This document shows, one piece after another, positions 39,421 through 63,882 of a DNA stretch of 64,000 bases. The notes beneath the pieces are model-generated. The model saw only the letters and a list, made by a program, of their open reading frames with translations, had not been told where the DNA came from and searched no databases. Made by a program: the position numbers and the translations under genes. The stretch comes from Patescibacteria group bacterium (GTDB taxonomy: Bacteria > Patescibacteriota > Doudnabacteria > UBA920), in contig JAMDAY010000030.1 in NCBI GenBank assembly GCA_023484515.1, positions 1,320 through 65,319 of the forward strand. Reading direction: 5' to 3'. Each line of letters begins with the position of its first letter. Position 1 is the first letter of the stretch.

Positions 39421-39602
39421 TTAATCCACAAGCAGGCCAATGAGGGCTAAATGATAAGGAAAGATATTAAAAATCGCTTAATTAAAAGATAATAATTTAA
39501 AATTTTCGGTTTAGTAACTTTTTTTTAAGATCTTCCGTAAAATAAATATTAAGGTTAGCGCAGGCTTATTTTACGGAAGATCTTATGTTATAATTTTTCA
39601 GT

Positions 39603-41935: not shown

Positions 41936-41941
41936 TTATAT

Positions 41942-42871: not shown

Positions 42872-42972
42872 AAATCAAAATGCAAAACTACAATGCAAAA
42901 TTTAAAGTTAAGCTGCATAAGTAATTTTGTATTTTTCAATGTCATTTTTATTTTTGATATTTAAATTTTTAA
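42872..42972. repeat. AT-rich intergenic hairpin repeat (family copy 2) between convergent genes
   Basis: The element has aaaatcaaaatgcaaaa and its inverted complement atttttgatattt. It fills the whole gap between rsmA and the minus-strand DUF192 gene. Confidence 0.6.
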
Positions 42973-48317: not shown

Positions 48318-48656
48318 TTGTGTTATAATTTTGGCATGAGTGAACAGGAAACCAGGGAAAAAATTAAGGAAATTGCCCAGAAAATCGCCGTGGAATTTAA
48401 GCCGGAAAAAATTATCCTTTTTGGTTCCTACGCCTGGGGAAAGCCCGATCCGGACAGCGACGTTGATTTGTTCGTGATTAAGGAAGTTGAAAATACTCGT
48501 GGCTGGGCGGGAAAAATTAGAATGGCTTTATGGGATTATCCAATAGCCATGGATATTTTAGTTTACAATAAGGAAAGATTAGGCAGGAGCTTAAAAAAAC
48601 AAAATTTTTTTATTAAAGATATTATTAGCCAAGGGCAAGTTTTATATGAACGATAG
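48318..48656 (+). CDS. minimal nucleotidyltransferase (MNT) antitoxin-like protein
   Basis: The sequence ILFGSYAWGKPDPDSDVDLFVI matches the GS...DxD motif. Confidence 0.75.
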   Translation: MCYNFGMSEQETREKIKEIAQKIAVEFKPEKIILFGSYAWGKPDPDSDVDLFVIKEVENTRGWAGKIRMALWDYPIAMDILVYNKERLGRSLKKQNFFIKDIISQGQVLYER

Positions 48657-49035
48657 CCTTTTATACCAAGATTGGTTAAAGCATGCCGATAACGACGAGA
48701 TTTCCTTACGGGCCGTTCTGAAAGAAGGGACGCCAAATACAGCTTGCTTTCTGGCGCATTTGATTTCAGAAAAGTATTTAAAGGCGCTTTTATTATTTTA
48801 TCGTGCGGAATATCCTAAAGTGCATGATCTGGTTAAGCTAGCCAAGCTCCTTGAATCAAAATTTCCTGATATCAAAGAGCTAGGAACTGATTTGGAATTT
48901 TTAACAGAATTTCATATTGAAGCGCGTTATCCTGCGGATATACCCAATTATACCCCAAGTGACGCAAAAAGAGCTTATGAGTCCGTATTACGAATAAAGG
49001 AATTCGTAAAAGGGAAGATTCAAGCCAACAGCTGA
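48646..49035 (+). CDS. HEPN domain toxin-like protein (HEPN/MNT type VII TA pair)
   Basis: The ORF overlaps the MNT stop. The HEPN Rx4-6H-like motif is EARYPAD ... and the protein is 129 aa long. Confidence 0.65.
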   Translation: MNDSLLYQDWLKHADNDEISLRAVLKEGTPNTACFLAHLISEKYLKALLLFYRAEYPKVHDLVKLAKLLESKFPDIKELGTDLEFLTEFHIEARYPADIPNYTPSDAKRAYESVLRIKEFVKGKIQANS

Positions 49036-49088
49036 AACATAATTGTTTTAAACAAACCCCACCCCTCAGTAACATTAAGCAAAAACCA

Positions 49089-52000
49089 TTGCTACAGAAA
49101 CTAAAACTAAAAGCTAATCTTAACATATTTAAAAAACTGGCAAGCCTCCTTCTGCTTGCAGTTTTTGCGGTGCCTTTGTTAAAGCCGCTTGTTGCCAAAG
49201 CTGCCAGTGGGGATACGCTATATGGCAAATGGTATGACGCTTCCGAAATTAAGCTGGAATCGCATGTAGACGTCTGGGAAGACGGCCAATGGCACAACGA
49301 TTATAATTTTTTAAGGGTCGGAAACGAGCCCGGCAAAAGTTCTTTTAAGGTGCGCATAAGGTTAATATTAAGGTCTCCTGAAACCTTAACCTTTGCCGGA
49401 AACCAATGGATTGGCAGCCCCGTACGGGACGGCGTAAAGGCTCCCGATAAGAATGGAGCGTTTGGCGGGCAAAATATTTATGGCTTGGTCGGAGAAGGAT
49501 CGGCTTGGGGGCTTAAAGAAAATGTGGTTTGCGAAGACAGGAACGTAGCGGCAATATGGCGGGTATGGCATACGGAAAATATAGCGTTTTGTTATGACAA
49601 AAAAGAAGGGGAACCAAATTCCCGATCTGACAAACGGGAAGACGCCAGCGTAACCTATAAAGCCGGAGACGAAATTTATCATAATGAAATTAGTTTCCAG
49701 CAAAAAGATTTTGAAAAATTAGGAATAGTATCGCCAACCAGCGGAGATTACCGCCTTTTTGATTTCCAGGTATGGCCGGAATTGGTAGTAAATACGGGCG
49801 ACCATAGCTTGTCCGATTATGTCATTGCGGGGGCAGAGGGCGTAATTGCGGGAAAGGCAATAAACCAGTCTGCTGGTATAGCCGAATCTGTGGCAAAAGG
49901 CGTCAATGGCGCAGCAGCCAAAGCCTTAGATTTGGTAAAACAAATTAAAAATAAGCTACTTACTCCCTCCCAAGCTACGGAAGAACTGGCTAAAACTATG
50001 CCGCAATTGTCTGCCCAGGAAGCCAAGGCGGTAGCGGAAGCAATGATAAATAATTTTTCAAAGCTCAGCCCTACGGGAACCATTACGAGGGATATGTTGG
50101 ATACGGTTTCTTCCTCCATTGTTAGGGAATTGGCCGCTAAAGGGATGAGCCAGGAAGCTTCACTGGCAGTGGCAAACGAAGCCCTCCGCCAAATGGCGGC
50201 GCTGGCGGGGAAAGATGCTCCGAAAATAGTAGGCGCTACAGGTGAAGCGCTGGAACGTGCGGCCGTGCAGGCAGCTAAAACCGAAGCGGAAAAAGAAGCA
50301 GCAAAAGTTGCAGCCAGGACAGTGGCCAAGACAGTTGCCGGACAAGTGGTAAAAGGGGCTTTAAAATTTGTTTCCGTGGCAGGTTGGGCTTGGACCGTTG
50401 CGGACATAATTGTTTATGCGACAAGCTTTGAAAACGGCCCAATTACTTATTATAGCGGAAACACGCATGACGTTTATATCCAAGTGTTTAAGACCGAAGC
50501 TGCCGCCTTGGCGCAAAAAGGAGAGGCGCCTCCCGATGGAGTAATAATAAACAACGGAGGAAAAATTGGATCTGGACAAAACCCTACTCCCAGCGGAAGT
50601 CCCTTGCTTGGTGCAGTGAACGAGCTGATAGGGATTGTTATAGGTTTTCTCAATGAGCTAATCTACGTAATTTTCTATTGGCTTATTGCGCCGCTGCTGG
50701 AGGCTATGCTTTCCATACATGTTTATACGGATGTGTTTGTGGCGGTTATTTATCCGGGATGGATTGTTATAAGGAATGTCTGCAATATTGTATTTATTGT
50801 GGCGCTAATTGCCATTGCCATGGGCACGCTTTTCCGCGTGGAAAGTTACCAGTTTAGGCATCTTTTGGTGCAATTGATAATTGCCGCTTTACTAATAAAT
50901 TTCAGTTTGGTCATTGCCCAGGCGGTATTGGGCTTGGCCGACACGGTGCAGGCGCAATTTTTGCCGGACAATTTAACAGTTGTCCGGTCTTTGGGTAGGG
51001 ATATGATGCTAAGTTACCGGGATAATAGTAGCGGTAGTATCACTGGCGTTACCAGTGTCAGTATGTCTAGTTTGGCAATGAATGGAACTTTTGCAACAAC
51101 TGTTAAGCCATTATTTTATTTAGCCCTGGCTTTGGGAAGTTTTGCCGTGTTTGCGGCCATTACCGCGTATTTGGTCATCCGCGTGGTAGCGCTTTGGATT
51201 TTACTGATGGTGTCTCCAATAGCTTATGCCGCCGGAGTATTGCCGACCACCAGTCATTACCGCAGCGAATGGTGGGGGCAGTTTATTAAGTATGCGTTTT
51301 TTACGCCAATAATGGCGTTTTTCCTGAACATTGCCGCACTAATAAACGACCAGCAGGCAAATAATCCCGTGCTTAAAACCGTGTCCAGCGCGGATTTTGG
51401 CGGTTCTACCGTTGCCCCATTTGTCTTTAAAGTGGGCAGCAATATTCTATTGCTAATTTTTCTAGTCGTTGCCCTCAAAGTCGCCGAACAGTTCGGCATA
51501 GCAGGGGCTTCCACCATTAACAAATGGGCCAAAGAAGGCATCTATGCGCCGTTTAAAGGCGCAGGCTTCCTGGCTCAACGCGGCAAGGGTTGGGCAACCA
51601 GGAAATGGAACGAAAAAACAGTGCATTGGTTTTTGGAAGGAGAAGGCGAGAAAAAACCAAGGAGTGCTTTAAGCAAAGCCGCTTTTGCCATGCTAAACCC
51701 GGTTTCGTTCTTTAAAGGCTGGGGCAAGCGGGCAGAAGAATTGCAGCACGAAGCGCAAGAAATTGCCCATGCCGGAGGCCGTGAAGTTGCGGAACAAATG
51801 TTGACTATGGGTAAGTTAAAAATCCCTTATCGGCAATTCGTAGAACGCAGCGCGGAAAATAATTACTTGAAAGATTATGAGAATATGCGCAAGGAGAGTT
51901 TGATGACTGCAGCTGTTGCGGCGACAAATATGCATGGGGCAGAAGGTGAAATGCGCAAGAGAGCTATAGTTAAGGCTGCCGCTAAGAATGGTTATTTAGA

Positions 52001-53354
52001 TGACTTACTCGCAATGAAAGAATTTGCCGAAAAGTACGCCGATGCGGATGGCACTTATTATAGCGCTGAAGTGTTAAATAGGTTTTTATTTGGCTATCTC
52101 GGCCAAAGTGAACAATCTATGCGTTTTATGGCTGAAGATATGGAGCAGTTGGGTAAGGACACAGGACATTATGAATATTTGGGCCACGCCGTTTACGATC
52201 CCGATACCAACACATTTAAGAGAGGGATGGAGGTGTTAGGTATGACAAAGGGTGTAGGAGGCCGTAATATTGAGGAGCTTAAAAATACCCACCAGGCTGC
52301 TTTTGCCATTGGAGAGCTAAAGAAAGTGGGTGGTCGGCAGAGGGCTGGTATCGCCCCCCATAATTTAATAACCTTGCGGGCAGAAGTTGATGAAAATGGT
52401 TTTAAAACCAAAGATAAAACTTTGTATGATATTACAAGGAAAGGTAGGGCAGACGGGGAGTTAGATGAATATCAATTAGGTGCTATTGGTATATTTGATC
52501 CTGCAACCTTGCGTGACGCACATTTTGCGCAATCTCGCCTAAAGGAATGGATTTATTCTTTGGAGGTGGATCAGACGACTGGAGAAGTGGTTGTTAAAGA
52601 TGATGCTGACGCTGCAAGGATCTCGTCAATCTGGAAGGTTAATCCGTCTTTTATGAAGCAAATGTATTCGCAAATCACTGGAGTAGATGTTAAAGATGTT
52701 ACGGGGATAAGGTTAAGAAAGGAAGACGGAAGCGGAAAAAAGACAGAAATGAAGATAGGTAATCCATCGACAATGCCAATGCCTGTAGGTAACGAAGTGA
52801 CAAATGATGTCATAAAAGATAAGAGAATCGGTTTAAAAGATGAACAAAAAAAACGCATAGATGCTTACCTGCCTTCTATAGTTAGTTTGCTATATACGTG
52901 TAAAATAGATGAAACTAAGGCGCGACAGGAGCTTAAAGCAAAATGCGGTATAGAAGAAGATAAATTAGAGCAGCAAATTATAGATAGAATTCACGAAAGT
53001 ATTGCGATGCAGTTAGAACAACGATATGATCCGCGCGCAGTAATTGATGCCGTTGATAGCAGGATTGTTAAGGAAAAGCACCACGGCCATGCAAGCGAAG
53101 GATTACCCCAAGGCTTAAAGTTTAATTTTAATACCAGGATCTTGCATCGGTTAAAGGAGGCGTATGGAAAAAGAAAGAGTTTGCAAAAAAAAGATGTTAG
53201 GGAAGCTATTCAAAAAGCATATGGTGACTTGGTTGAATATTATGAAGGTAAACCTGAAGAAGGCAAGGTGGCGGAAATTGAGCCCGGAGACTTAGATAGG
53301 GTTGCAGAGCACGCAGTCCCGATATCCAGAGGAGATTTGGAGACATTAGATTGA
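49089..53354 (+). CDS. giant VirB6/TrbL-like membrane protein (1421 aa) with large N- and C-terminal extramembrane domains
   Basis: A signal peptide is present. The central polytopic block spans about aa 500-850 (IYVIFYWLIAPLLEAMLS, VCNIVFIVALIAIAMGTLF, LLVQLIIAALLINFSLVIAQAVLGLAD, LVIRVVALWILLMVSPIAYAAGVL, FFTPIMAFFLNIAAL) and resembles the TrbL/VirB6 core. Confidence 0.5.
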   Translation: MLQKLKLKANLNIFKKLASLLLLAVFAVPLLKPLVAKAASGDTLYGKWYDASEIKLESHVDVWEDGQWHNDYNFLRVGNEPGKSSFKVRIRLILRSPETLTFAGNQWIGSPVRDGVKAPDKNGAFGGQNIYGLVGEGSAWGLKENVVCEDRNVAAIWRVWHTENIAFCYDKKEGEPNSRSDKREDASVTYKAGDEIYHNEISFQQKDFEKLGIVSPTSGDYRLFDFQVWPELVVNTGDHSLSDYVIAGAEGVIAGKAINQSAGIAESVAKGVNGAAAKALDLVKQIKNKLLTPSQATEELAKTMPQLSAQEAKAVAEAMINNFSKLSPTGTITRDMLDTVSSSIVRELAAKGMSQEASLAVANEALRQMAALAGKDAPKIVGATGEALERAAVQAAKTEAEKEAAKVAARTVAKTVAGQVVKGALKFVSVAGWAWTVADIIVYATSFENGPITYYSGNTHDVYIQVFKTEAAALAQKGEAPPDGVIINNGGKIGSGQNPTPSGSPLLGAVNELIGIVIGFLNELIYVIFYWLIAPLLEAMLSIHVYTDVFVAVIYPGWIVIRNVCNIVFIVALIAIAMGTLFRVESYQFRHLLVQLIIAALLINFSLVIAQAVLGLADTVQAQFLPDNLTVVRSLGRDMMLSYRDNSSGSITGVTSVSMSSLAMNGTFATTVKPLFYLALALGSFAVFAAITAYLVIRVVALWILLMVSPIAYAAGVLPTTSHYRSEWWGQFIKYAFFTPIMAFFLNIAALINDQQANNPVLKTVSSADFGGSTVAPFVFKVGSNILLLIFLVVALKVAEQFGIAGASTINKWAKEGIYAPFKGAGFLAQRGKGWATRKWNEKTVHWFLEGEGEKKPRSALSKAAFAMLNPVSFFKGWGKRAEELQHEAQEIAHAGGREVAEQMLTMGKLKIPYRQFVERSAENNYLKDYENMRKESLMTAAVAATNMHGAEGEMRKRAIVKAAAKNGYLDDLLAMKEFAEKYADADGTYYSAEVLNRFLFGYLGQSEQSMRFMAEDMEQLGKDTGHYEYLGHAVYDPDTNTFKRGMEVLGMTKGVGGRNIEELKNTHQAAFAIGELKKVGGRQRAGIAPHNLITLRAEVDENGFKTKDKTLYDITRKGRADGELDEYQLGAIGIFDPATLRDAHFAQSRLKEWIYSLEVDQTTGEVVVKDDADAARISSIWKVNPSFMKQMYSQITGVDVKDVTGIRLRKEDGSGKKTEMKIGNPSTMPMPVGNEVTNDVIKDKRIGLKDEQKKRIDAYLPSIVSLLYTCKIDETKARQELKAKCGIEEDKLEQQIIDRIHESIAMQLEQRYDPRAVIDAVDSRIVKEKHHGHASEGLPQGLKFNFNTRILHRLKEAYGKRKSLQKKDVREAIQKAYGDLVEYYEGKPEEGKVAEIEPGDLDRVAEHAVPISRGDLETLD

Positions 53355-53372
53355 CTATTTCTAATTTAAAAC

Positions 53373-55085
53373 ATGCTAAATTTAGCTTTCATTAAAACCT
53401 TAAACCTGGAATCGCTGAGATACTTGGACGAAGAAACTTTGGTTTCTCCGGCATGTTTGGCTAAGCTGGAGGAAATGTCGGAAGATATGGCTTTTGAGTA
53501 TGAGGCGGGGCTGGCTGCGGAGTTTTATGAAAAGCTAAGTCAACTTATTACACAATATCAGGATGGTCTTAAGCAAAATCCCGACGCGCATAACCGCTTA
53601 ATTGCCGTGCTTTGGAAGGTCTCTTGGAAAGCTTTGCCTGCCTTGGGCTTGAAAATTCGGCGGAACATTTTGAGCAATAATCTGGTATATGCCTTAAACC
53701 GGGGCGTGGACGTAAAGAATATCCTCAGGAGGGTTTTGGATCCTTACGAGGTAGCGTTTATCCCGGAAGAAAACCAGAGGCGGGAGTTTATCTATTCCCT
53801 GGAATCTAACGAGGAAAAGTTGGGTAAGTCCCTGCTTATGCTTAAGACCGGGGAAAAAGTCCAGCCGACCATAAAAAATTGGCTGGCAAATTACAATATG
53901 CATTCGCCTTTAACGGCAGAACGCGGAGCTTTTCACGAGATCAATTATCTGGACTCAGATTTAAATACCAAAACGCTTTCTCCCCAAGACCGCGAAATTT
54001 TAAGGCAGGTGTTAAATATTTATGACTGGCTGCTGTTCCCGCCATTAACTTCCAGGCACGTAACCGTTAATGAAGAAAGGCAGGTATCCGGTACGCCTTA
54101 CATGAACCAGCAGACCGCGACTTTGTCCAAGGAGACGGGCGAAGCCAAGCAGCCTGAGGCTCCGGTGCCGCCGGGGGTAAGGCCAGCGAAGATGAGGATT
54201 TCGGATTTGATGGCGGAAGAAAAGGTAGGTGACGAGAAAGCGAAAATGGAAAAAGGGCAGGCGGCTGGGGGGAAGGAAGATTTAACGGAAATGCCTTTGC
54301 AGATGCGGCCGCCGGTGGCGCCGGTTAAAGAGGCATTGCCAAGCGTAAACACAACCTCTCTGTCGCCTTCGGCGACATCTCCCCTTAAAAGGGGAGAAGG
54401 GGTGGAGGAAAGGCCTGCGGGGACGACTCTTTTTAGCCAAAAAAAAGAGGACATAAAACCGGCGGAAGACAATAGGATAAATGGGACAAATGAGACAGAT
54501 AGGACTAATAAGACGAATGCGGCAGATATCGCAAACAGGACTGGTGCGGCAAAACCGGTGGAAGTGGTGGAAGAAATTGGGACTTTGAACGAATACCATC
54601 AAATAGCCGGACAAGATGCGGCTCCGGGACTTTCGTTTGGCGGACAGGCGCAGGCGCCTTTTAAGGACAAAGGCATGCATTCGGAAAACCAAAAACCCCG
54701 CCTAAGCGAGGTTGGTTTGGCAAGCTCTGGCGTAGCGCTTGAGCCTGACTTGTCATCTAAAGATAGTATAGCAATTCCTGGGAATTTGTCAAGTCCTGTT
54801 TCTAAGCCTAATGACGGATCAGGTGGTACATCCTTAGGTGGTGGACCGGAGGGGGTTCGAACCCCCAGAGCCATGAATGACAAGTCAGGCTCCGCACCAC
54901 GCCCGGCCCACCTGGATAAATTATATCACAAAGCAGGTGCAATAGCTGCCAATAAAGGCGTTCCCCCCATGGCCGTAAATATGGAAACCATTAAGGCGCA
55001 AATGGAAGAAAAAAAGCGGAAAACGCAGGCGCAAATAGACAGTAAGCTGCAGGAGTTGGAGAAGCGGGTGAATAAGACCCTCTAA
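53373..55085 (+). CDS. hypothetical protein with a structured N-terminal half and a low-complexity Pro/Ala/Gly/Ser-rich C-terminal half
   Basis: A 570-aa ORF. The C-terminal half contains a GC-rich palindromic 16-mer at 54852-54867. Confidence 0.45.
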   Translation: MLNLAFIKTLNLESLRYLDEETLVSPACLAKLEEMSEDMAFEYEAGLAAEFYEKLSQLITQYQDGLKQNPDAHNRLIAVLWKVSWKALPALGLKIRRNILSNNLVYALNRGVDVKNILRRVLDPYEVAFIPEENQRREFIYSLESNEEKLGKSLLMLKTGEKVQPTIKNWLANYNMHSPLTAERGAFHEINYLDSDLNTKTLSPQDREILRQVLNIYDWLLFPPLTSRHVTVNEERQVSGTPYMNQQTATLSKETGEAKQPEAPVPPGVRPAKMRISDLMAEEKVGDEKAKMEKGQAAGGKEDLTEMPLQMRPPVAPVKEALPSVNTTSLSPSATSPLKRGEGVEERPAGTTLFSQKKEDIKPAEDNRINGTNETDRTNKTNAADIANRTGAAKPVEVVEEIGTLNEYHQIAGQDAAPGLSFGGQAQAPFKDKGMHSENQKPRLSEVGLASSGVALEPDLSSKDSIAIPGNLSSPVSKPNDGSGGTSLGGGPEGVRTPRAMNDKSGSAPRPAHLDKLYHKAGAIAANKGVPPMAVNMETIKAQMEEKKRKTQAQIDSKLQELEKRVNKTL

Positions 55086-55552
55086 CTTTACGGAATACGG
55101 ATTTTTACGGATATACGGAATTATGAATACAAAATATCAAACGAAAAAAGAAATAATATACGCAGATTTAAGCGGAAAAATTATTGGAATTTTATTCCAG
55201 GTGTATAATGAGCTTGGTTACGGCCATCTGGAAAAAGTATACCAGAAAGCAATTGCTATAGCATTGGCAAAAGCCGGGATGAAGTTCGTTGAACAACTTT
55301 ACGCTCCGGTAGTATTTGAAGGGAAGGTTGTCGGAAAAAATTACTTTGATTTTTTGATAGAAGGTGTTATTGTTTTGGAAATCAAAAAAGGGGATTATTT
55401 TGTAAAAGCAGATATAGATCAGGTTTATAGATATCTGGTGACTAAGAATCTAAAATTAGGCATATTGGCTTACTTTGCACCTCGAACTTTACATTTTAAA
55501 AGAGTAGTTAATTTACGGAATCCGTATATCCGTAAAAATTCGTAGTCCGTAA
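55086..55552. mobile_element. TIR-bounded element carrying the GxxExxY gene
   Basis: The left TIR is ctttacggaatacggatttttacggatatacgg (55086-55120). The right end, reverse-complemented, is ctttacggactacgaatttttacggatatacgga (about 55512-55550), matching at about 33 of 35 positions. It has the same TIR family as 34716-34980. Confidence 0.65.
55123..55545 (+). CDS. GxxExxY family protein (PD-(D/E)XK nuclease-fold family)
   Basis: The eponymous motif GHLEKVY is present in a 140-aa protein. Confidence 0.7.
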   Translation: MNTKYQTKKEIIYADLSGKIIGILFQVYNELGYGHLEKVYQKAIAIALAKAGMKFVEQLYAPVVFEGKVVGKNYFDFLIEGVIVLEIKKGDYFVKADIDQVYRYLVTKNLKLGILAYFAPRTLHFKRVVNLRNPYIRKNS

Positions 55553-55557
55553 AGATT

Positions 55558-57153
55558 ATGGGCATAATCCAAACAGGAAAATTAAAAATTTTAATTAAAT
55601 CTTCCGCCATCCTGAACAATGCCGAACGGCAGGAGTGGACTGGTTTGTTGGAATTGATGAACGACAAGCAGCTTTTGGAATTGGAAAAAATTTTGGAAGG
55701 GGCAGAAGAAGACAGGAAAAAAGCGGCCAACGCGGCCGTTCCCGCGGCCATTAAGCCGGCGGTTCCGGCTGTGCAGCCCAAACCCGCCTCCTCACCCAAA
55801 CCCCTCCAACCTCCCCAGGTTCGCAAGACAGCCACGGGAATACCGCAGCCGGGAACCGGCTTTAGCCATATTATGAATCTGCCGCAGTCGCCCATGGAAG
55901 GGGCAAAACAGGCTGCCGTTCCGCCCCAAAAAGCCCAGGCGCCCGAAACCAAACCGGAAAGTCCCGCCAAAAAGAATTTCCTGCAGCGTTTAAAGTTTGC
56001 CTTGTCGGAAAAAGAGCTGCCTGCCCCGCAAAAGGAAAAGAAACCGGAAGCGCGGCAGCAAAAACCAAAAGCTGTCGAGCCGCTATTGCCGAAGAAAGAA
56101 ACGCAGCCTGACGCCATGCCCAAGTCGGCGGCTTTGGCCGAGAAGCCTACTTTGACCGCAAAAAAACCGGCACCGGCAGTGCCTTTGCCGCCCAAACCAA
56201 AACCGGTCGTTTACAAACAGGTTATTGGCACTAAAAATGTTTATTACCAGCATCCGGCTGCGCCATTAGGATCGCCGGCTCCGGCTTCGGTTCCGGCACC
56301 GGCGCCAGCGGCCCAGCCGGATCCAATTGCCGCGACAAAATTACCGGAAGCGGCAAAGCCCGTTGAGCCCGGTATAAAATGGCCGTCGCCGGATTTGGCA
56401 ATAAACATGCAAGAGCCAAAACCCCAAACCGTTGCCGCAGGAAAATTGGAATCGCCGCTGCAGCCGGCCAAACCCGCTACTCCTGACGTTGTTCCCGCGG
56501 ATCGCGAAAGCAAGCCGGCCTCGCCTGTCCTCCCTGCTTCGCCGCAGTCAATAATCTCTCAAATAAAAGCTAAGCCTGCCCCGCTGTTTGCGGCCGAGCC
56601 GGACACTATCAAGAAAGAAAAACCGCTGCCAATTGGGCCAAGCTTTCCCCCGCAGCTAAAACTTTCCGAAAATCTAAAAACCGAAACAAACGAGAAATCC
56701 CCGCAGCAGCCCAAGTTTTTTCCGGGAGTGGATTTGCCGCAAATGCCGGCGAACGTTAAGGCTCCGGTCTTTTCCCGTCTAAAATTCAAGCCGGCCAGAA
56801 CCCAGGAAGCGGCAATTGCTCAGGAACCGGGCGCAAAAGAATGGGCGGGCAAAGAGGCCGAGGTAAAAACCTTGCAGGACATTGCGTATCTTACGGTTCC
56901 GCAATTTAAGTCGTTTAGCACTTCTTCCCTGGCGCAAAAACTTAAAGCCCTTATTTCCAAGCAAGGCTACCATGCGGTTATTTTCAGCCTGGAAAAAAGC
57001 CCGTTGTTTAAGGTCTATGTGGATACCGGCCTGAAAATTCTGGAAGAAAGGCTGGATTTTAACTCCTTGGAGTCCGACCTGAAAAAGACTTATTTGAGCA
57101 AGCAAGAATTTGAGGCGTTTGCGGATTTGCTGCAACAGATTCAGGCGGGATAA
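55558..57153 (+). CDS. hypothetical Pro/Ala/Lys-rich low-complexity protein with a structured C-terminal region
   Basis: A 531-aa ORF with PKPAxx-type repeats and a conserved-looking C-terminal 120 aa. Confidence 0.45.
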   Translation: MGIIQTGKLKILIKSSAILNNAERQEWTGLLELMNDKQLLELEKILEGAEEDRKKAANAAVPAAIKPAVPAVQPKPASSPKPLQPPQVRKTATGIPQPGTGFSHIMNLPQSPMEGAKQAAVPPQKAQAPETKPESPAKKNFLQRLKFALSEKELPAPQKEKKPEARQQKPKAVEPLLPKKETQPDAMPKSAALAEKPTLTAKKPAPAVPLPPKPKPVVYKQVIGTKNVYYQHPAAPLGSPAPASVPAPAPAAQPDPIAATKLPEAAKPVEPGIKWPSPDLAINMQEPKPQTVAAGKLESPLQPAKPATPDVVPADRESKPASPVLPASPQSIISQIKAKPAPLFAAEPDTIKKEKPLPIGPSFPPQLKLSENLKTETNEKSPQQPKFFPGVDLPQMPANVKAPVFSRLKFKPARTQEAAIAQEPGAKEWAGKEAEVKTLQDIAYLTVPQFKSFSTSSLAQKLKALISKQGYHAVIFSLEKSPLFKVYVDTGLKILEERLDFNSLESDLKKTYLSKQEFEAFADLLQQIQAG

Positions 57154-57303
57154 GTACATGAATTATGAAGTATGAATTAGGAATTAGGGCATTGGATCTA
57201 TCCATAATTCATAATTCCTGATTCGTAATTCTATTATTTTATAGAGAAATACTTGTCAATTCGGAAAGTAAAAATAATGTGTTATACTTAACATAAGTTA
57301 CAA

Positions 57304-57762
57304 ATGCAATTTCCTGTGCCACAATTTACGGACGTGGAGGACAAAATAATCGGCCCGCTGACCATTAAGCAGTTTGGGATTCTGTTTGCGGGCGGAATAT
57401 TCGTGTTTTTGGGGTATTCGGCGACCAAAAGCGTTGCGGTGGGCGTGGTTTTCCTTATCCTGTTCGGAGTGCCGGCCTTAGGGATTGCCTTTGCCAAAAT
57501 AAACGGCAGGCCATTGTATACTTCTTTTATGTTCCTGATAAAATTTATAACCAGCCCCAAGGTTTTGGTTTTCCACAAGGGCTATGACAGCGCCATGGGG
57601 CTGCGGCAGCCGGCAAAAGGCAAGGTTGCGGAAGTAAAAGCCGAAGAGCCGGCAAAATTGGCAGGTCCTCCCCAGGATCCCAAATCCCGCTTGGCGGAAA
57701 TTAACAGCTTGCTGGAAAAAAAGGTTTCGGAGGAACGGGAGTTGCTTAAGAGGATACACTAG
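57304..57762 (+). CDS. PrgI/VirB3-like small membrane protein
   Basis: A 152-aa protein with two TM helices (FGILFAGGIFVFLGYSA and VGVVFLILFGVPALGIAFA) in a T4SS-like context. Confidence 0.5.
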   Translation: MQFPVPQFTDVEDKIIGPLTIKQFGILFAGGIFVFLGYSATKSVAVGVVFLILFGVPALGIAFAKINGRPLYTSFMFLIKFITSPKVLVFHKGYDSAMGLRQPAKGKVAEVKAEEPAKLAGPPQDPKSRLAEINSLLEKKVSEERELLKRIH

Positions 57763-57763
57763 A

Positions 57764-58186
57764 ATGTTGAATCAGGAATTAGGAATTATGGAAACTGCAA
57801 ATAAGGCCAAAAGCAAAATACAATCTTTTACCGATTTAGATGCCTGGAAAGAAGGACATAAATTGGTCTTGGTAATTTATGAAATGACAAAGGAGTTTCC
57901 AAAAGAAGAAATGTTTGGTTTGGCAATCCAGATAATAAGAGCGGCGGTTTCCATTACTTCCAATATTGCGGAAGGCTTTAGCAGGCAATCATATAAAGAC
58001 AAATTGCATTTTTATTCTATGGCTTTAGGCTCTTTGACAGAAGTTCAAAACCAACTGTTAATATCCAGGGACATAAAATATTTGTCCAGTCATAATTTCC
58101 TAGAGATTGCTAATCAAACCGTAAAGGTAAGCAAGATAATCAACGGCTTAATCAAGAGTTCCAAAACCATAATTCATAATTCCTGA
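57764..58186 (+). CDS. four-helix-bundle protein (23S rRNA IVS-protein / Avd family)
   Basis: The sequence DLDAWKEGHKLVLVIYEMTKEFPKEEMFGLAIQIIRAAVSITSNIAEGFSRQS is a close match to the family signature. Confidence 0.8.
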   Translation: MLNQELGIMETANKAKSKIQSFTDLDAWKEGHKLVLVIYEMTKEFPKEEMFGLAIQIIRAAVSITSNIAEGFSRQSYKDKLHFYSMALGSLTEVQNQLLISRDIKYLSSHNFLEIANQTVKVSKIINGLIKSSKTIIHNS

Positions 58187-58203
58187 TTCCTAATTCCTCT
58201 GCA

Positions 58204-58917
58204 ATGAAAAGTGAAATGCAAAACAAAAAAAAGGCGCAGGTTAAGTCCACCCAGAGCTTTCTGCGCATTAACGAGATAAAAAACGACACCGTGGTCTTGG
58301 ACGACGGGACTTTGCGCGCCATTATTGCCGTTTCCAGCACCAATTTTGACCTAAAAAACCAGGACGAGCAGAACGCCATTATTTTCAGCTTCCAGGGGTT
58401 TTTGAACGCCCTGGAATTTTCCGTGCAAATTTTAATGCAAAGCCGGAAAATGGAGATTGGCAATTATTTGGACAAGTTAAAGCGCCTGGCCGAAAAGCAC
58501 ACCAATGAACTGCTGCGCGTGCAGACCGTGGAATATATTGAATTCATTAACCGCCTCATAGAGAACGCAAGCATCATGAATAAGAATTTTTACATTATTG
58601 TGCCGCTGGGCGAATCCATTACGCCCAAAGCCGCGGGTTTTTTCAGTAAAATGTTCGGCAACGGCAAGGCCAGGGAAGTGGCGGAAAAAATGGAAAATTT
58701 TGAGAAGGCCAAGGAAAAACTGGACAACCGCGTAACTTCCATTATGACCAATTTGGGCGGCATGGGGCTGAGGGGGCTAAGGTTGAAAACCGAGGAAATT
58801 ATCCAGTTATATTACAATTCCTACAATTTTGAGGCCGGCCCCATTATAAACGCCGCGCAGCTGGCCGGAGTGCAAATGGAGCTGGAGGCAAAAGGAGAAA
58901 AAGCCGAGGAAGTGTAA
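58204..58917 (+). CDS. VirB4 N-terminal domain protein (split VirB4, part 1)
   Basis: The sequence FLRINEIKNDTVVLDDGTLRAIIAVSSTNFDLKNQDEQNAIIFSFQGFLNALEFSVQILMQSRK parallels the N-terminal roughly 100 aa of VirB4 at 10143-12542. Confidence 0.55.
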   Translation: MKSEMQNKKKAQVKSTQSFLRINEIKNDTVVLDDGTLRAIIAVSSTNFDLKNQDEQNAIIFSFQGFLNALEFSVQILMQSRKMEIGNYLDKLKRLAEKHTNELLRVQTVEYIEFINRLIENASIMNKNFYIIVPLGESITPKAAGFFSKMFGNGKAREVAEKMENFEKAKEKLDNRVTSIMTNLGGMGLRGLRLKTEEIIQLYYNSYNFEAGPIINAAQLAGVQMELEAKGEKAEEV

Positions 58918-59030
58918 AATGCTAATATCAAAATGGAAAATGAAAATGTAAAATGTTAAATTGCCATAATAACAGTATAAATTCTTTTGGGTGTCATTTT
59001 ATATTTTGATTTTTTTACTTTAAATTTTTA
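58918..59030. repeat. AT-rich hairpin repeat (family copy 3) separating the two VirB4 parts
   Basis: The inverted repeat atatcaaaatggaaaatgaaaatg pairs with cattttatattttgattttt. The element is paralogous to 41821-41935. Confidence 0.7.
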
Positions 59031-59033
59031 TTT

Positions 59034-60878
59034 ATGTCATTATTTGGTTTTAAATCCGAGGAAGAACTGGAAGCCAAGAAGGCGGAGGTTAAGGAGCTGG
59101 AGAGCGAAAAAAACCTCAACCAAAAGCTGGGCGATTTGGAAAAGACTTACCGCGAGGGCATGACCACGCTTAAGGACCTGCTGGCCCCGGCCGCCTTGAA
59201 ATTCCAAAGTTCTTATTTTGAATTGAACGGCAAGGTGGCGCGCAGCTTTTTTGTGCTGGCTTACCCGCGGTTTCTGTCCACCAACTGGCTGTCGTTCATT
59301 ATCCATGCCGAAGGCGCCATTGACGTGTCCATGTTCATTTATCCCATAGATTCGGAAACCATCCTGAAAAAATTAAAATCCAAAGTCGGGGAAATCGGCT
59401 CGCAAATGGCCATTAACCAGGAAAAAGGCCAGGTGCGCGACCCCATGCTGGAAACGGCCTACAAGGACGTGGAAGGCTTGCGCGATGCGCTGATGCAGGG
59501 CACGGAAAAATATTTCAGGTTCGCCTTGTATTTCACCATTTATGCTGACGACATCAAAGAACTGGACAAGAATTCCGCAACTTTGGAGAGCGCTTTGGGC
59601 TCCAAGCTCGTGGTGACCAAGCGGGCCATGTTGCAGACTCAGGCCGGATTTAATTCCACCTTGCCCATGGGCCTGGACGAGCTGGACGTGGCCAATAATA
59701 TGAACACCAGCCCGCTTTCCACCTGTTTTCCGTTCGTGTCGTCTGATCTGACCAGCAACGACGGCATTTTATACGGCATTAACCGCCATAATAACAGCCT
59801 GATTTTATTTGACCGCTTCGCCATGGAAAACGCCAATGCCGTTATTTTTGCCAAGTCCGGCGCCGGGAAATCTTACGCCGTAAAATTGGAAGTGCTGCGG
59901 TCGCTGATGATCGGCACGGAAGTGATAATTATTGATCCGGAAAACGAATACAAGCACCTGGCCGACGCCGTGGGCGGCACTTATTTAAGCGTGTCCTTAA
60001 ATTCCAATTCCCGCATTAACCCGTTTGACTTGCCCGTGGCCATAGAAGGGGAAAATAACGCGGACGTGCTGCGCAGCGCCGTGGTAAATTTGCTGGGACT
60101 ATTCAGCCTCATGCTGGGCAAGCTTAACCCCACGGAAGAAGCCCTGATGGACAAGGCCTTATGGCAGACTTACGCCAAGAAAGACATTACCGAAAATTCA
60201 GATTTCCGCACCGTGGAGTATCCCACCATGAACGACTTGGTGGAAATTTTGCAGGGCATGGTAGGGGCGGAAAGTTTGGCGCAGCGCCTGACCAAATTTA
60301 CGGAAGGCACGTTCGCCGGCCTGTTCAACCAGCCGACCAACGTGGTGTTAAACAACCAATTGGTCGTATTTTCCATCCGTGACCTGGAAGACGAATTGCG
60401 CCCCATTGCCATGTACATTGTGCTAAACCATATTTGGAACGTGGTGCGCAGCGAATTGAAAAAGCGCATCCTGGCGGTGGACGAAGCCTGGATAATGATG
60501 CAGCACGAAGACAGCGCCCGGTTTTTGTTCGGCATTGCCAAGCGCGGCCGCAAATATTATCTGGGACTGTCCACCATTACCCAGGACGTGGCCGACTTCA
60601 TGGCCAGCCCTTACGGCAAGCCTATTGTGACCAACTCGTCCATCCAGTTATTGCTTAAACAGAGTCCGGCGGCCATTAATATTATCGCGGAGACTTTTAA
60701 TTTGACCGAAGGGGAAAAATACCTGCTGCTGGAAAGCGAAGTGGGAGAAGGCATATTCTTCGCAGGCCTTAAGCACGCGGCCATTAAGATTTATGCCTCT
60801 TACGTGGAAGACCAAATTATAACAACCGATCCCAAGCAATTGCTGGAAATTCAGGAGAGCCAGGAAAAAATAAGCTAA
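59034..60878 (+). CDS. virB4: VirB4-family ATPase domain protein (split VirB4, part 2)
   Basis: Walker A is AKSGAGKSYAVKLEVL and Walker B is ILAVDEAWIMM. The protein is colinear with aa 200-799 of the first VirB4. Confidence 0.8.
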   Translation: MSLFGFKSEEELEAKKAEVKELESEKNLNQKLGDLEKTYREGMTTLKDLLAPAALKFQSSYFELNGKVARSFFVLAYPRFLSTNWLSFIIHAEGAIDVSMFIYPIDSETILKKLKSKVGEIGSQMAINQEKGQVRDPMLETAYKDVEGLRDALMQGTEKYFRFALYFTIYADDIKELDKNSATLESALGSKLVVTKRAMLQTQAGFNSTLPMGLDELDVANNMNTSPLSTCFPFVSSDLTSNDGILYGINRHNNSLILFDRFAMENANAVIFAKSGAGKSYAVKLEVLRSLMIGTEVIIIDPENEYKHLADAVGGTYLSVSLNSNSRINPFDLPVAIEGENNADVLRSAVVNLLGLFSLMLGKLNPTEEALMDKALWQTYAKKDITENSDFRTVEYPTMNDLVEILQGMVGAESLAQRLTKFTEGTFAGLFNQPTNVVLNNQLVVFSIRDLEDELRPIAMYIVLNHIWNVVRSELKKRILAVDEAWIMMQHEDSARFLFGIAKRGRKYYLGLSTITQDVADFMASPYGKPIVTNSSIQLLLKQSPAAINIIAETFNLTEGEKYLLLESEVGEGIFFAGLKHAAIKIYASYVEDQIITTDPKQLLEIQESQEKIS

Positions 60879-61092
60879 AGTTACGCGCATATTTTATTCA
60901 AGGTTCACATTAAGAAAAATAAATTTATTCCGGCGCCATTTTGAACAAAGTGAAGGATCTTAACCTTAGCAAAGAAAAGGAGATTCCTCGCTGTGCTTAG
61001 AACGGCGCCGTTGTGTTAAGATTTACGGAAGGCGCAAAGGCTAATAATTTTCTCGGCCGAGAAAATCGTTAGCCATTAATCAATTCAGTTTT

Positions 61093-63882
61093 ATGGCAGA
61101 CGACAATACTACAACTTTAAATCCGGCTGAAAGGGAAGCGGCTCAATCCCCGCAAGAGAACCGGGACAATGGCAGCGGGGGTGACGGCAGTAATTTGCCC
61201 AAGGTTAGGATTCCGGCCAAAGACTGGCATGGGGTCAGGTTTGACCGGCTTGAGGCTGCGGAAAGCCAGAGGGATTCCAAGGGAAATTACATTGTTAAGC
61301 CGTTAGTTTCCATTATTACCATTAGAGGGCAAGGTTTGGCCGGTTACGACCTGGTCAGTTTGAATTTTCAGGGGAAAGATTACATAGTAAGTGATCCCGC
61401 CCCTCCGCGGATAAGGGATAATGCCATAACTTTTACCGTTCCTGATTACCAAAGGACCGGCTTAAGTTCGGGCTGGCTTAAAATTAAGCTGGAAAGCGCT
61501 TTCCGGCCGGAAATTTCGTGCGAATTATTACCCGCGGTATTTTATCAAAGCAAACAAGAACAAGTAGCGGCAAAAGAGGGTGAACAGGAAGAAGAAAGGA
61601 AGAAACGGGGAGCGGAAGGTTCTTCGGATGAGCAAGGCGGAGCGGCTGCACAGGCAAAAAAAAAGCAGGCCGCCGCTCAAGCGGCGGCAGCGGCTCCGGA
61701 AGAAACGCCATCCAAGCTAGGCAAAAAACAACAGGCCGAAAATTTGGACTACGACGAAACAGACGAAAGCGCCGAAGAATCCGCATCCCAAGAAACCGCC
61801 GCCGAAGAGACTGGCGGCGAAGCGGAAATATCCGCAGAATCGCTTTCCGCCCGGGTGACGGCCGAGGGGTCGTCTGCTAACGGAGGCGGCGAAGCGGAAA
61901 TCTCCGTAACGGCTTCCCAAGCCGAAGCGCCTTTAAACATTAACGCATCAGCCCGGCCAGTTGCGCCAGGCGCTGCGCAGGCTGCTCAAGCGGCGGAAAT
62001 TAAGGCGGAAGCGGATTTAACCGGCCAGGCGCAGGCGAAAGCCGAAGTTACGGCGCAGGCGGAAACACCGGGAGTTTCCGTTAAAGCGGAAGAGTCTGTT
62101 AAAACCCAGGTCGAGGCCAAGGCGCCGGGGGTGTCGGTTCAAGGCCAGGCGCAGGCGAAAGCAGAGGAAGAGGAAAAAATTCAAGGAACAGTAGCCCCGC
62201 CTGCCGCAACCGTATCAGCGCAAGCCACGCGGGAAACCGGAGGCGCTACGCCGGCCAGCGCTAAAATTTCCGGAGGTAAAGCCGGATCCGCAGAAGCGGC
62301 GGTGCAGGCAGGCGGGGAAGCTGATATGGAAACTCCCGCTGCGTCAGTAGCGCCGCAGGTCCAGGCCAAGGCCGCCGCAGAAACGGAAATTGAAAAAGGA
62401 CCGAGCGCACCCTTTGCGTCAGCGGCAGGGCAAACCGGGGCAGGATCTGCGGCAAAACCGGCAGGGGAAGCGTCTGCGTTAGAACAAACCGCAAAAGCTG
62501 AAGGCGCTGAGCGAACTGCGCCTCAGGAAGTTACCCCTAAGCAAGAACAGGAAAATCCGGCGAAACCGGAAGAGGAAGCTGACCAACCTGAAAAGATAAA
62601 AACCCCGGCAACAAGCGCACAGGCAGGTAAATCTGCGCCAACAATTCCGCCAAAAGGCGGAGTAACGGACGTACAAGGCCCGGAAACGAGCCTGGAAGCC
62701 GGCGGCAAGGCGGGGATTCCGCCGCAATACGCCCAAATGCTGGGCAAGTTAAAGGAGAACGACGCGCTTCGCGGCCAGCCCGGGGCAATAAAAGGGAAAG
62801 ATCAAATTATTGCCGCTCCCAAGCCGGAAGGCAGCCTGGCGGCAAAGCAGCAGGCAGAAGCAAAACCGGGAATAGACGGGGAAAAATTGAAAAAAGGCAA
62901 AGAATTGGGGATGCGGCAAGGCCAAATGGACGGAATTGGCCGCCCTGCGGCAGAAAGAAAAGACCAGGCTGAAGAACCGGTTCCGGAAGAACCGGGATCT
63001 GCTATCCCCCCGAAACCAAACATGGGAGCGGAAAAACCGGAAGAAGAAAATTCGGAAACGGAACAGCCGCAGGAAGAGGAAGGGCAGGAAGAGGGACCTG
63101 AAGAAATGCCGCCAGTTGTGCCGCCGCGGCCCGGCTTAAAGCAGGAAGCGGCAGGCGCCGTTAAATCTGCTGCCGCAGGCTTGGCAAAGCGATACATTAA
63201 AAAGGTCGCTCTGTCCGCCTTGCTTTGGGTGGGGGCGACCATTGGCGCGGTATTAATTTTCCTGCTGCCGCTTATAGGGTCCATGCTCGTTATTTGCAAA
63301 ACCGCTTCCATTAACGGCAAAGCCATCTTGCCCGGAGTTTGCGAATCATTCCAAAACATCTCCAATCTGACCGGCAGCATGTTTACTTCCACGCCTCCTC
63401 CAATATCACTGCCAGGAGGCCCTTGCTCGCCAGCATTATCCGGTCCGGCCAGCGTAGCCAGCTTGCAGACTACTTGCTTTGGACAATACGCTCCCTATGC
63501 TTCCATAATCGCCAATGCGGAAAGCGGCGGTGACTTTGCCAGGGGAAGCGCCTCGGACAAGTGCAATGCCGACGGAAAGGTGTTTTCCTGGGGTTTGTTT
63601 CAGATTAATTTAATGATGCACCCTATAAAAGATCCCGGCACTGGCAATACCCTAAATTGCCCTGCGGCTTTCAGGGTAGATCCTAAAAACTATGTTAAAA
63701 GAGACGCTAATGGTAAAATATATTATGATTGCCAGGTAAAGAACCAGACGCTTTATGACCAGTGCGTAAAGGCGGCCATTAATCCAACCGCCAATATCCA
63801 GGCTGCCTGCCAAATTTCCAGCAACGGAAAAAATTGGAATGCCTGGAGCACAAATGCCAAGTGCAGCAAGGTTACTCCTTAA
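61093..63882 (+). CDS. large protein with an acidic/Ala/Pro-rich disordered middle, a TM helix and a C-terminal lytic transglycosylase (SLT, VirB1-like) domain
   Basis: The C-terminus (ANAESGGDFARGS ... KVFSWGLFQINLMMH) carries the catalytic Glu-Ser and GLxQI motifs of SLT domains. A TM helix (ALLWVGATIGAVLIFLLPLIGSMLVI) precedes it. Confidence 0.65.
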   Translation: MADDNTTTLNPAEREAAQSPQENRDNGSGGDGSNLPKVRIPAKDWHGVRFDRLEAAESQRDSKGNYIVKPLVSIITIRGQGLAGYDLVSLNFQGKDYIVSDPAPPRIRDNAITFTVPDYQRTGLSSGWLKIKLESAFRPEISCELLPAVFYQSKQEQVAAKEGEQEEERKKRGAEGSSDEQGGAAAQAKKKQAAAQAAAAAPEETPSKLGKKQQAENLDYDETDESAEESASQETAAEETGGEAEISAESLSARVTAEGSSANGGGEAEISVTASQAEAPLNINASARPVAPGAAQAAQAAEIKAEADLTGQAQAKAEVTAQAETPGVSVKAEESVKTQVEAKAPGVSVQGQAQAKAEEEEKIQGTVAPPAATVSAQATRETGGATPASAKISGGKAGSAEAAVQAGGEADMETPAASVAPQVQAKAAAETEIEKGPSAPFASAAGQTGAGSAAKPAGEASALEQTAKAEGAERTAPQEVTPKQEQENPAKPEEEADQPEKIKTPATSAQAGKSAPTIPPKGGVTDVQGPETSLEAGGKAGIPPQYAQMLGKLKENDALRGQPGAIKGKDQIIAAPKPEGSLAAKQQAEAKPGIDGEKLKKGKELGMRQGQMDGIGRPAAERKDQAEEPVPEEPGSAIPPKPNMGAEKPEEENSETEQPQEEEGQEEGPEEMPPVVPPRPGLKQEAAGAVKSAAAGLAKRYIKKVALSALLWVGATIGAVLIFLLPLIGSMLVICKTASINGKAILPGVCESFQNISNLTGSMFTSTPPPISLPGGPCSPALSGPASVASLQTTCFGQYAPYASIIANAESGGDFARGSASDKCNADGKVFSWGLFQINLMMHPIKDPGTGNTLNCPAAFRVDPKNYVKRDANGKIYYDCQVKNQTLYDQCVKAAINPTANIQAACQISSNGKNWNAWSTNAKCSKVTP

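Follow-up and report, generated by a model that had tools for sequence, protein, structure and literature searches.

Does the inverted repeat around a GxxExxY gene mark a mobile element, and if so, is the enclosed protein what moves it? The question was raised by a 64,000-nt stretch of DNA (the window throughout) from a Patescibacteria group bacterium of the Doudnabacteria (contig JAMDAY010000030.1, positions 1,320 to 65,319), in which the gene and the repeats on both of its sides occupy positions 55086 to 55554. The first-pass annotation, taken literally, described a cut-and-paste transposon with terminal inverted repeats (TIRs), with the GxxExxY protein as transposase and a gene-less element between ileS and recO as an internally deleted MITE (a miniature transposable element with inverted repeats). 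We found that the cassette is one copy of a large family in Patescibacteria (Doudnabacteria-like bacteria of the Candidate Phyla Radiation, CPR) and some of their neighbours. Comparison of genomes showed a defined unit of arms plus open reading frame (ORF) that has evidently relocated between operon junctions without duplication and coexists with ORF-less hairpins that have the same arms.

The GxxExxY gene is enclosed by arrays of heptamers

The inverted repeat around the gene was real. It measured 33-34 nt with 2 mismatches between the left arm (CTTTACGGAATACGGATTTTTACGGATATACGGA) and the right arm, where 35 bp had been given in the first-pass annotation. The parts of the cassette are as follows.

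55086-55554, + strand: complete cassette with its gene, 469 bp, made up of left arm, GxxExxY ORF and right arm
55086-55119, + strand: left arm, four heptamers in a 2+2 arrangement (CTT, then TACGGAA TACGGAT, spacer TTT, then TACGGAT, A, TACGGA)
55123-55545, + strand: GxxExxY / PDDEXK_3 ORF, 140 aa, with motifs G34-E37-Y40, D76, E86-x-K88 and Q100-xxx-Y104
55521-55554, - strand: right arm, repeating the left arm in inverted orientation with 2 mismatches

The left arm directly abutted the stop codon (TAA, 55083-55085) of a 570-aa ORF, and the right arm ended 3 nt before the ATG (55558) of a 531-aa ORF. The 3' end of the GxxExxY ORF overlapped the right arm by 24 nt, its last 8 codons (...LRNPYIRKNS) being translated right arm; several homologues had PYIRKN-like C-terminal tails or TNIRI-like N-terminal peptides that are translated arms of the TACGAAT variant. 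When the 17-mer at the terminus, CTTTACGGAATACGGAT, was searched in the window with up to 3 mismatches, it was found only in the four arms of this cassette and of the gene-less element and in a partial fifth copy at 55511, where a partial forward heptamer pair (55511-55527) lies just internal to the right arm. These 5 matches compared with 0.18 expected, and 0 of 100 shuffles reached 5. Unlike a conventional TIR, the arms were arrays of four heptamers, and in most relatives the spacers within the arms would not pair.

Arms and gene are linked across the family

Relatives were taken from one metagenome scan, which gave 80 loci at 46-78% amino acid identity, 67 of them distinct; individual loci are cited by number (L026 and so on). 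The best flanking inverted repeat beat all 30 shuffles in 58 of the 67 distinct loci, compared with only 7 for direct repeats. The general plan of the arms in these 58 loci was four TACNRAT heptamers arranged 2+2, and nearly all arms shared the architecture [T/A]ACNNAN[T/A]ACNNAT, a spacer of 1-8 nt, and TACNNATNTACNNA. The heptamer core varied by lineage (TACGGAT, TACGAAT, TACTAAT, TACAAAT or TACAGAT). On a simple neighbour-joining distance tree, the core type tracked the protein clades, with the window copy, L026, L118, L120 and L121 forming the GG/TACGGA clade, and the arms and the ORF therefore descend together. On one contig (L131) there were two types of arm, and a separate GxxExxY paralogue and a separate hairpin went with each.

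Other layouts were seen in addition to the simple one. Solo arms and tandemly amplified arms occurred (L122, L138), and in L026 and L163 the order was arm, ORF, arm, loop, arm. In L122 (2670-2989), six nearly identical tandem units of left arm plus 28-nt spacer, with a period of 58 bp, stood 5' of a GxxExxY gene that had a single right arm; this array is a local amplification of one arm. In L125, L126, L131, L133, L134, L136 and L140, the spacer between the heptamer pairs was direct (the same on the + strand, e.g. TTG in both arms) while the heptamers were inverted, so that the spacer would form an internal loop in a hairpin. TACAAAT arms flanked a GxxExxY gene in another metagenome (L168).

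Outside this group the repeats changed. A copy in a metagenome-assembled genome (MAG) labelled Bacteroidetes kept the right arm and had a shortened left arm. Distant members, at 31-36% identity and carried by plasmids of Fusobacteria and Treponema, had other flanking repeats (52-nt direct and 16-nt inverted), which makes the heptamer architecture specific to this subfamily, and flanking repeats as such seem general across the GxxExxY family. On the Fusobacteria plasmid (CP102406.1; L200, 2284-2936, 36% identity), three copies of the 52-nt direct repeat (AATCAGTGAAAA...AATCCGTGTACC) flanked the gene; the 16-nt inverted repeat of the Treponema plasmid copy held the same AATCCGTG core as the L200 repeat.

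The enclosed protein is a predicted PD-(D/E)XK nuclease

The ORF at 55123-55545 matched PF13366 PDDEXK_3 (E 3e-27, 95.6 bits, cut-off 22) and TIGR04256 GxxExxY (E 1e-26, 93.7 bits, cut-off 35). E37, D76, E86 and K88 were invariant across 35 homologues, as were G34, Y40, Q100 and Y104, and the PD-(D/E)XK nuclease identity given in the first-pass annotation was thereby borne out. The motifs made up the full RecB/Cas4-type set, with Glu37 in the GxxExxY helix, Asp76, Glu86-x-Lys88 and Gln100-xxx-Tyr104. Judged from this conservation, the nuclease active site is intact and under selection. An AlphaFold (AF2) model of the ORF had a predicted local distance difference test score (pLDDT) of 87.6, and its best neighbours in the PDB were Cas4 SSO0001 (E 4e-5), lambda-exonuclease-like enzymes, tRNA-splicing endonucleases (EndA) and Hjc resolvase, at a TM-score of about 0.5. 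No solved structure detectable by sequence was found for the protein, nor was any similarity to known homing endonucleases.

The conserved catalytic residues agree with a protein that serves as transposase. Against that role, no recognised transposase or recombinase domain was present: PDDEXK_3 was the sole domain, and neither a DDE, HUH, serine- or tyrosine-recombinase domain nor a separate DNA-binding domain was found. For defence and phage annotation, PADLOC gave only a chance-level Csn2 match and PHROGs gave nothing; carriage of GxxExxY by phages was limited to one distant match in IMG/VR. The GxxExxY/PDDEXK_3 family as a whole is large: at E <= 1e-3 it had 6357 members among the representatives of clusters at 50% identity. 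No function is assigned to it in the searchable literature, which mentions the family only in passing, in keeping with the remark in the first-pass annotation that a mobilising role had not been established; a survey of the superfamily gives the function as unknown. The searchable part of the literature likewise yielded no description of the heptamer-arm architecture, and informal notice by curators is possible.

Cassettes change position between related genomes

GxxExxY cassettes were held by at least five unrelated types of junction. Within the GG/TACGGA clade, they separated the 570-aa from the 531-aa ORF in a type IV secretion system (T4SS)-like cluster (window), and lay between LOG and transaldolase genes in L026, L118 and L120, and after parB in L121. 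Members of other clades were located between rpsC and rplP (L153), in an rfb-like operon (L138), and in a methylmalonyl-CoA mutase operon (after the gene in L198; also L122). The parB site gave a direct comparison, as L121 held a 500-bp cassette and L016, with a ParB 83% identical, was empty directly past the same TAG stop.

The T4SS-like cluster was compared among four related clusters. The VirB4 proteins of L119 and L124 were 83-84% identical to that of the window; the L128 contig ends before virB4, and its TraC-like protein was 75% identical to that of the window. The junctions differed from genome to genome, being empty (0-4 nt), hairpin-only, GxxExxY-bearing or four-helix-bearing (the last with an ORF of a second family, described below).

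570-aa ORF to 531-aa ORF: GxxExxY cassette in the window; empty, 0 nt, in L124; the L119 and L128 contigs start later
531-aa ORF to PrgI: hairpin in the window; decayed four-helix pseudogene in L119; GxxExxY cassette in L124 and L128
PrgI to TraC, GxxExxY-bearing: L119 (78% identical to the GxxExxY protein of the window) and L130
PrgI to TraC, ORF-less: hairpin in L128 with arms homologous to the four-helix arms of the window
PrgI to TraC, others: four-helix cassette in the window; degenerate hairpin in L124; empty in L136 (TAG-CT-ATG)
TraC to VirB4: AAAATNA hairpin in the window; empty, 4 nt, in L119; four-helix cassette in L124; the L128 contig ends

These empty orthologous sites bore out the earlier expectation of a widespread repeat family whose position changes between related genomes, and the arms-plus-ORF unit is very probably mobile.

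The first-pass annotation had also looked to target-site duplications at the insertion boundaries, and here it was contradicted. More than 40 boundaries were inspected, among them those of the two copies in the window, of 12 related TACGGA copies and of 33 distinct gene-bearing elements, and no duplication turned up there or in four comparisons of filled and empty sites, including L121/L016 and L130/L136; this stands against a cut-and-paste transposon. The flanks mostly ended in A on the left and started with T on the right, which only lengthened the palindrome by 1-7 nt. Placement was almost exact instead. In the window and in 33 distinct gene-bearing elements (L118-L197), the gap separating the upstream stop codon from the repeat's outer end had a median of 0 nt (24 loci), and on the far side the repeat ended a median of 2 nt before the downstream ATG (26 loci); the ORF-less hairpins of the window were placed likewise. 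The GxxExxY ORF was co-directional with its neighbours (48:6 upstream, 49:4 downstream). Since random insertion followed by selection should favour larger intergenic regions, placement from stop to start points to targeting or to selection within operon transcripts. We know of no insertion mechanism that explains exact stop/start placement without duplication.

The window cassettes lie within a T4SS/conjugation-like cluster (48318-63882) that encodes a TrbL_3-like 1421-aa ORF, PrgI-like and TraC-like proteins, a VirB4/TraG-like ATPase and an SLT-like 929-aa ORF, and is preceded by an MNT-HEPN pair (NTP_transf_2 + HEPN). Many GxxExxY homologues among the closest ones occupy the counterpart of this cluster in other genomes, at differing junctions.

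Gene-less hairpins share the arms of the cassettes

The second TACGGA element of the window fills the junction between ileS and recO.

34717-34979, no strand assigned: gene-less TACGGA-arm element, 263 bp, with arms at 34717-34749 and 34955-34979 and an inner hairpin at 34785-34807 / 34860-34882

Upstream of it is a class-I tRNA synthetase ORF with an IleS-like domain set (stop 34713-34715), and downstream is recO (ATG 34982). As first described, this spacer was bounded by the same termini as the gene-bearing cassette and encoded nothing, no frame being open throughout; the left arm was complete and the right arm shorter, leaving a repeat of 20-24 nt. The nested hairpin of the first description was present as well, and its size needed correction from a perfect 19 bp to 23 nt with one mismatch, or 20 nt perfect. 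The left arm was 97% identical to a hairpin arm in another MAG, compared with 94% to the gene-bearing arm of the window. A decayed copy of the gene was considered and ruled out, since the element had no nucleotide similarity to it and no open frame in any reading frame. The proposed pairing of an autonomous with a non-autonomous element therefore stood in part: there is one repeat family with gene-bearing and gene-less forms, and the gene-less interior is no recognisable deletion derivative. At the orthologous ileS-recO junction of three relatives (RecO 48-52% identical), ORF-less heptamer hairpins of the types TACAAAT, TACGAAA and TACGAAC were found.

A genome-collection scan for the 17-mer returned at least 115 loci, with about 100 chance matches; at least 12 true arms were found, in Doudnabacteria and Patescibacteria MAGs, and the MAG of the window was not among the matches listed. 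The true arms listed included seven complete hairpins of 80-105 bp (arm, loop of 10-40 nt, arm), one gene-bearing copy and three one-armed or diverged copies. The loops of the seven hairpins shared a GGGCAC-like motif, and they thus form a lineage of their own and are no random deletions. Gene-less forms were the commoner ones, at 6:2 in the window and about 7:1 among the TACGGA matches listed from species-representative genomes.

These data bear on the transposon with its MITE as first proposed. Sharp inverted termini, the coexistence of gene-bearing and gene-less copies, and variable sites all favour it, and some eukaryotic DNA transposons carry short subterminal repeat arrays that are bound by the transposase. 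However, the interior of the supposed MITE shared nothing with the gene-bearing copy, the conserved loop motif is unlike random deletion end-points, and the four-helix cassettes share the design. Together with the missing duplications and the missing transposase domain, this makes the literal reading very unlikely.

The hairpins could instead be targets. If only the ORF moved, the nuclease would cut ORF-less palindromes of its arm family at the centre, where hairpins or cruciforms with short loops form, and repair from an ORF-bearing copy would proceed via the arms of about 33 bp, as in homing; no target-site duplication would be expected. Consistent with this, the ORF was always located between arms, and one LOG-transaldolase junction (L056) carried only an ORF-less TACGGA hairpin where L026, L118 and L120 carried the ORF. 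In L153 and L131, an ORF-less hairpin with a zero-length loop kept the differences between left and right arm that the gene-bearing copy of that contig has, and in L153 the ORF of that copy filled the space exactly (arm, ATG...TGA, arm). Small PD-(D/E)XK homing endonucleases exist (I-Ssp6803I, PMC3384342), and the structural neighbours of the protein include Hjc and the single-strand nuclease Cas4. On the other hand, the parB site of L016 had no hairpin at all, so the arms of L121 arrived there with the ORF; the layout of L026 and L163 is no simple insertion into a centre; and 33 bp is short for homology-directed repair. Homing would also leave both the spread of the hairpins themselves and the four-helix cassettes unexplained. 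We regard it as improbable.

In total, the window held eight heptamer-array palindromes of four heptamer families, with lag-7 autocorrelation of the arms up to 0.82. Besides the elements already given and two of the four-helix type, these were as follows.

58918-59033, no strand assigned: gene-less AAAATNA-type hairpin, exactly filling the space from the TraC-like stop to the VirB4-like ATG
41822-41941, no strand assigned: gene-less AAAATNA-type hairpin, from the stop of a UvrD/PcrA-like helicase to the ksgA/RsmA ATG
42872-42965, no strand assigned: second gene-less AAAATNA-type hairpin at this locus, directly past the ksgA stop and facing a convergent DUF192 gene
27170-27303, no strand assigned: gene-less hairpin with four NNCAAAT heptamers per arm, lag-7 autocorrelation 0.82 and a 76-nt loop, abutting the stop of a minus-strand PLD-like ORF

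Two perfect intergenic hairpins of 20-22 nt, with loops of about 20 nt and no heptamer periodicity, were also present (39526-39585 and 37870-37932). The former holds TCCGTAAAA/TTTTACGGA, in an arrangement opposite to that of the cassette termini.

A sister cassette encloses a four-helix protein

The same architecture was found in the same operon, 2 kb from the GxxExxY cassette and between the PrgI-like and TraC-like genes.

57762-58196, + strand: sister cassette, 435 bp, with four GAATNAN heptamers per arm (57762-57791 / 58167-58196) and a 140-aa four-helix ORF at 57764-58186
57157-57233, no strand assigned: gene-less hairpin with the heptamer type of the four-helix cassette, 77 bp, 3 nt past the stop of the 531-aa ORF

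Its arms were inverted repeats of 30 nt. The ORF matched 23S_rRNA_IVP (PF05635) at E 8e-37, matched bAvd weakly, and fell in the PHROG "Avd protein of DGR". Among the loci compared, heptamer-array inverted arms enclosed all five of five four-helix ORFs. As the same architecture surrounds an ORF that is not a nuclease, architecture alone does not mark the enclosed protein as a transposase. In L119 (about 580-870), a four-helix ORF between the homologue of the 531-aa ORF and the PrgI-like gene was broken by stops and frameshifts, with one arm kept (ATCCTTA type); it looks like a decaying cassette.

The sister cassette raises the possibility that the palindromes move via a factor encoded elsewhere, and that the GxxExxY and four-helix ORFs are cargo of the loop with functions of their own (e.g. 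defence, nucleic-acid processing or addiction). Two unrelated ORF families indeed share arm architecture, element size and placement at junctions. Only one base separates the heptamers of the two (TACGAAT versus TAGGAAT/TATGAAT), and within a four-helix-type arm there is a unit that reads TACGAAT. The excess of gene-less hairpins, and heptamer families with no ORF-bearing copy in the window, fit such passengers too. In contrast, the arm type tracked the GxxExxY phylogeny through several contexts, L131 paired each arm type with its own paralogue and hairpin, and no candidate transposase was seen adjoining any element. Several arm specificities per genome would also require several factors acting in trans, and PADLOC gave no match to a defence system. 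Passenger ORFs are on balance unlikely.

Probable recognition sites rather than an RNA stem

As RNA, the cassette was predicted to fold into a structure closed by an arm-to-arm stem of about 34 bp in both the minimum free energy (MFE) and the centroid structures (MFE -134.7 kcal/mol, z = -6.2). Selection for this stem was tested in three ways, and all three tests were negative. Mismatches between arms were mostly transversions, with no excess of G-U pairs. Heptamer cores were 0.72-0.76 identical within an element compared with 0.36 between elements, and pairing positions (0.72) were no more alike than non-pairing ones (0.76). In the spacers within the arms, 0.25 of positions would pair versus 0.33 in the null. 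In L119, which is nested in the TACGGA clade, seven of eight cores had changed to AG, TG or AA. Homogenisation of the heptamers across the whole element agrees with a lineage-specific factor that recognises them, or with concerted evolution, and less well with a constraint on structure alone. A search of Rfam at E <= 1 over 34000-59000 gave no relevant RNA family, and no promoter- or terminator-like site was found within the arms.

These tests bear most on a host function, under which the hairpins would be resident intercistronic RNA or DNA structures (e.g. RNase III sites or mRNA stabilisers), selected and immobile, with incidental ORFs. The predicted closing stem, the exact fit from stop to start within operons, the absence of duplications, the ileS-recO hairpin in each of the four relatives, and rRNA intervening sequences (IVSs) of the same design that are cut by RNase III (PMC4990558) would all agree with it. 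However, close relatives differed clearly in presence and absence, with empty junctions of 0-4 nt, and near-identical arms occurred at unrelated loci, both within a genome and across samples. The homogenisation was element-wide and not compensation pair by pair, with unpaired spacers and no G-U bias, and solo or tandemly amplified arms, the Rfam result and the lack of promoter- or terminator-like sites point the same way. An immobile host structure is therefore quite improbable.

A candidate mechanism and the points against it

We propose a mobile family of palindromic cassettes that would be driven by the nuclease. The GxxExxY nuclease would recognise its own arms by their heptamer arrays, whether these are in duplex, hairpin or cruciform form, and cut the DNA there; host repair or recombination would then copy or re-join the cassette at new junctions, and ORF-less hairpins would be served by the enzyme in trans. 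The element would be a selfish one driven by its nuclease and comparable to RAYT/REPIN or homing systems, and not a DDE transposon that moves by cut and paste. When transcribed, the stem of about 34 bp formed by the arms would bring the upstream stop near the downstream start, and this may make insertion into an operon tolerable, as with rRNA IVSs. As a whole, this reading falls a little short of an even chance, although we place it ahead of each rival taken singly; the part of the nuclease in the mobility of the unit is conceivable and, on sequence evidence, slightly more doubtful still.

Several observations weigh against this proposal. The protein is a single-domain nuclease of about 130 aa, without obvious strand-transfer or ligation activity, and the boundaries lack target-site duplications. 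Neither excision junctions nor circle junctions were seen. Polymorphism between strains did not appear either, exact-protein look-ups having given only 3 further samples, in each of which the arrangement was the same, and a look-up of RecO having given no record. By blastn, the gene-less element's interior (34750-34955) matched only itself, and it is unrelated to the gene-bearing copy, and no ORF-bearing copy of the AAAATNA or NNCAAAT families occurred within the 64 kb. At the ileS-recO junction, all four relatives had a hairpin, each of another heptamer type, and hairpins of differing type at the same junction could be a host-selected structure. The four-helix ORFs have no nuclease fold and are enclosed by such arms nonetheless, and the arms may be serviced by something other than the enclosed nuclease. 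Finally, all relatives are metagenomic contigs, in which repeats can be mis-assembled.

Comparison with known systems

Judged by analogy, the cassette family would work most like RAYT/REPIN and looks most like an rRNA IVS, and it appears to differ from each in a defining feature. REPINs with their RAYT genes (PMC3116915, PMC3337134) are likewise dispersed intergenic hairpins of two inverted repeat units, with a small associated gene that is flanked by the same repeats, inverted. Several repeat families per genome, each with its own gene (here L131), singlets as well as tandem clusters, and no evident target-site duplication are further common traits. The enzyme is different, being a RecB/Cas4-like PD-(D/E)XK nuclease here and an IS200/IS605-like HUH Y1 transposase there. 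The arms consist of four heptamers instead of G+C-rich repetitive extragenic palindromic (REP) sequences of 20-35 nt. Unlike in REPINs, placement at stop and start codons in operons is exact, and the gene-bearing unit itself changes position between relatives.

The 23S rRNA IVS of Coxiella is 428-444 nt long, has a terminal stem of 28 bp with an S23p ORF in the loop, and is excised by RNase III; even after more than 25 years, the origin and mobility of such IVSs are called unclear (PMC4990558). Insertions in the 16S and 23S rRNA of CPR bacteria hold 23S_rRNA_IVP ORFs, and PDDEXK_3 is not among the ORFs listed there (PMC11270868). The cassettes resemble IVSs in size (435-469 bp), in a terminal stem of about 30 bp, in the single small ORF that fills the loop, and in being co-transcribed with the host gene or genes; a cassette with the IVS ORF family (57762-58196) lies 2 kb away in the same operon. 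In contrast to IVSs, which occupy helix 25 or 45 of 23S rRNA, they lie between protein-coding ORFs, in the window those of a T4SS-like cluster, and the GxxExxY ORF encodes a nuclease and not an S23p / 23S_rRNA_IVP four-helix protein. That GxxExxY nucleases are the propagation enzymes of an unrecognised class of prokaryotic elements, with the S23p-ORF IVSs of 23S and 16S rRNA as its rRNA-resident branch, is a speculative extension that we hold to be unlikely. If true, it would be the first mechanistic handle on the nature and spread of IVSs.

Other parallels are partial. Pairs of insertion sequences (ISs) and MITEs also have terminal inverted repeats shared by gene-bearing and gene-less members, intergenic locations, and insertion sites that differ by genome. 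The cassettes differ from them in lacking target-site duplications and a recognised transposase family, in the unrelated interior of the miniature copy, and in heptamer-array arms whose internal spacers are not conserved. With PD-(D/E)XK homing endonucleases (I-Ssp6803I; PMC3384342, PMC3943268) they share a small stand-alone nuclease that is the sole gene on a selfish insert, sites that occur in both filled and empty form (L121 versus L016; L026, L118 and L120 versus L056), and no target-site duplication. There is, however, no intron or intein signature here, many sites are used instead of one cognate site, and the insert has inverted arms of its own. The core fold and motif set (helix-borne Glu, Asp, ExK, QxxxY) are those of Cas4/RecB nucleases (SSO0001, PDB 4ic1), but the GxxExxY protein has about 130 aa, no Fe-S cluster module or accessory domains, a TM-score of only about 0.5, and no CRISPR or recombination-pathway context.

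A separate class of mobile element is for now a doubtful assignment. Nevertheless, the near-universal link of gene and repeat turns a "hypothetical nuclease" into a testable hypothesis for a large family to which no function is assigned, and connects this family by design to the 23S rRNA IVSs. For CPR genomics, the cassettes account for small ORFs that look stray and for odd peptide tails such as ...PYIRKN and MxTNIRI..., the tails being translated arms. They also interrupt core operons (ribosomal proteins, aminoacyl-tRNA synthetase-recO), and may shape operon expression in very small genomes. Among the systems compared, REPINs thus offer the nearest likeness in presumed mode of action, and rRNA IVSs the nearest in form.

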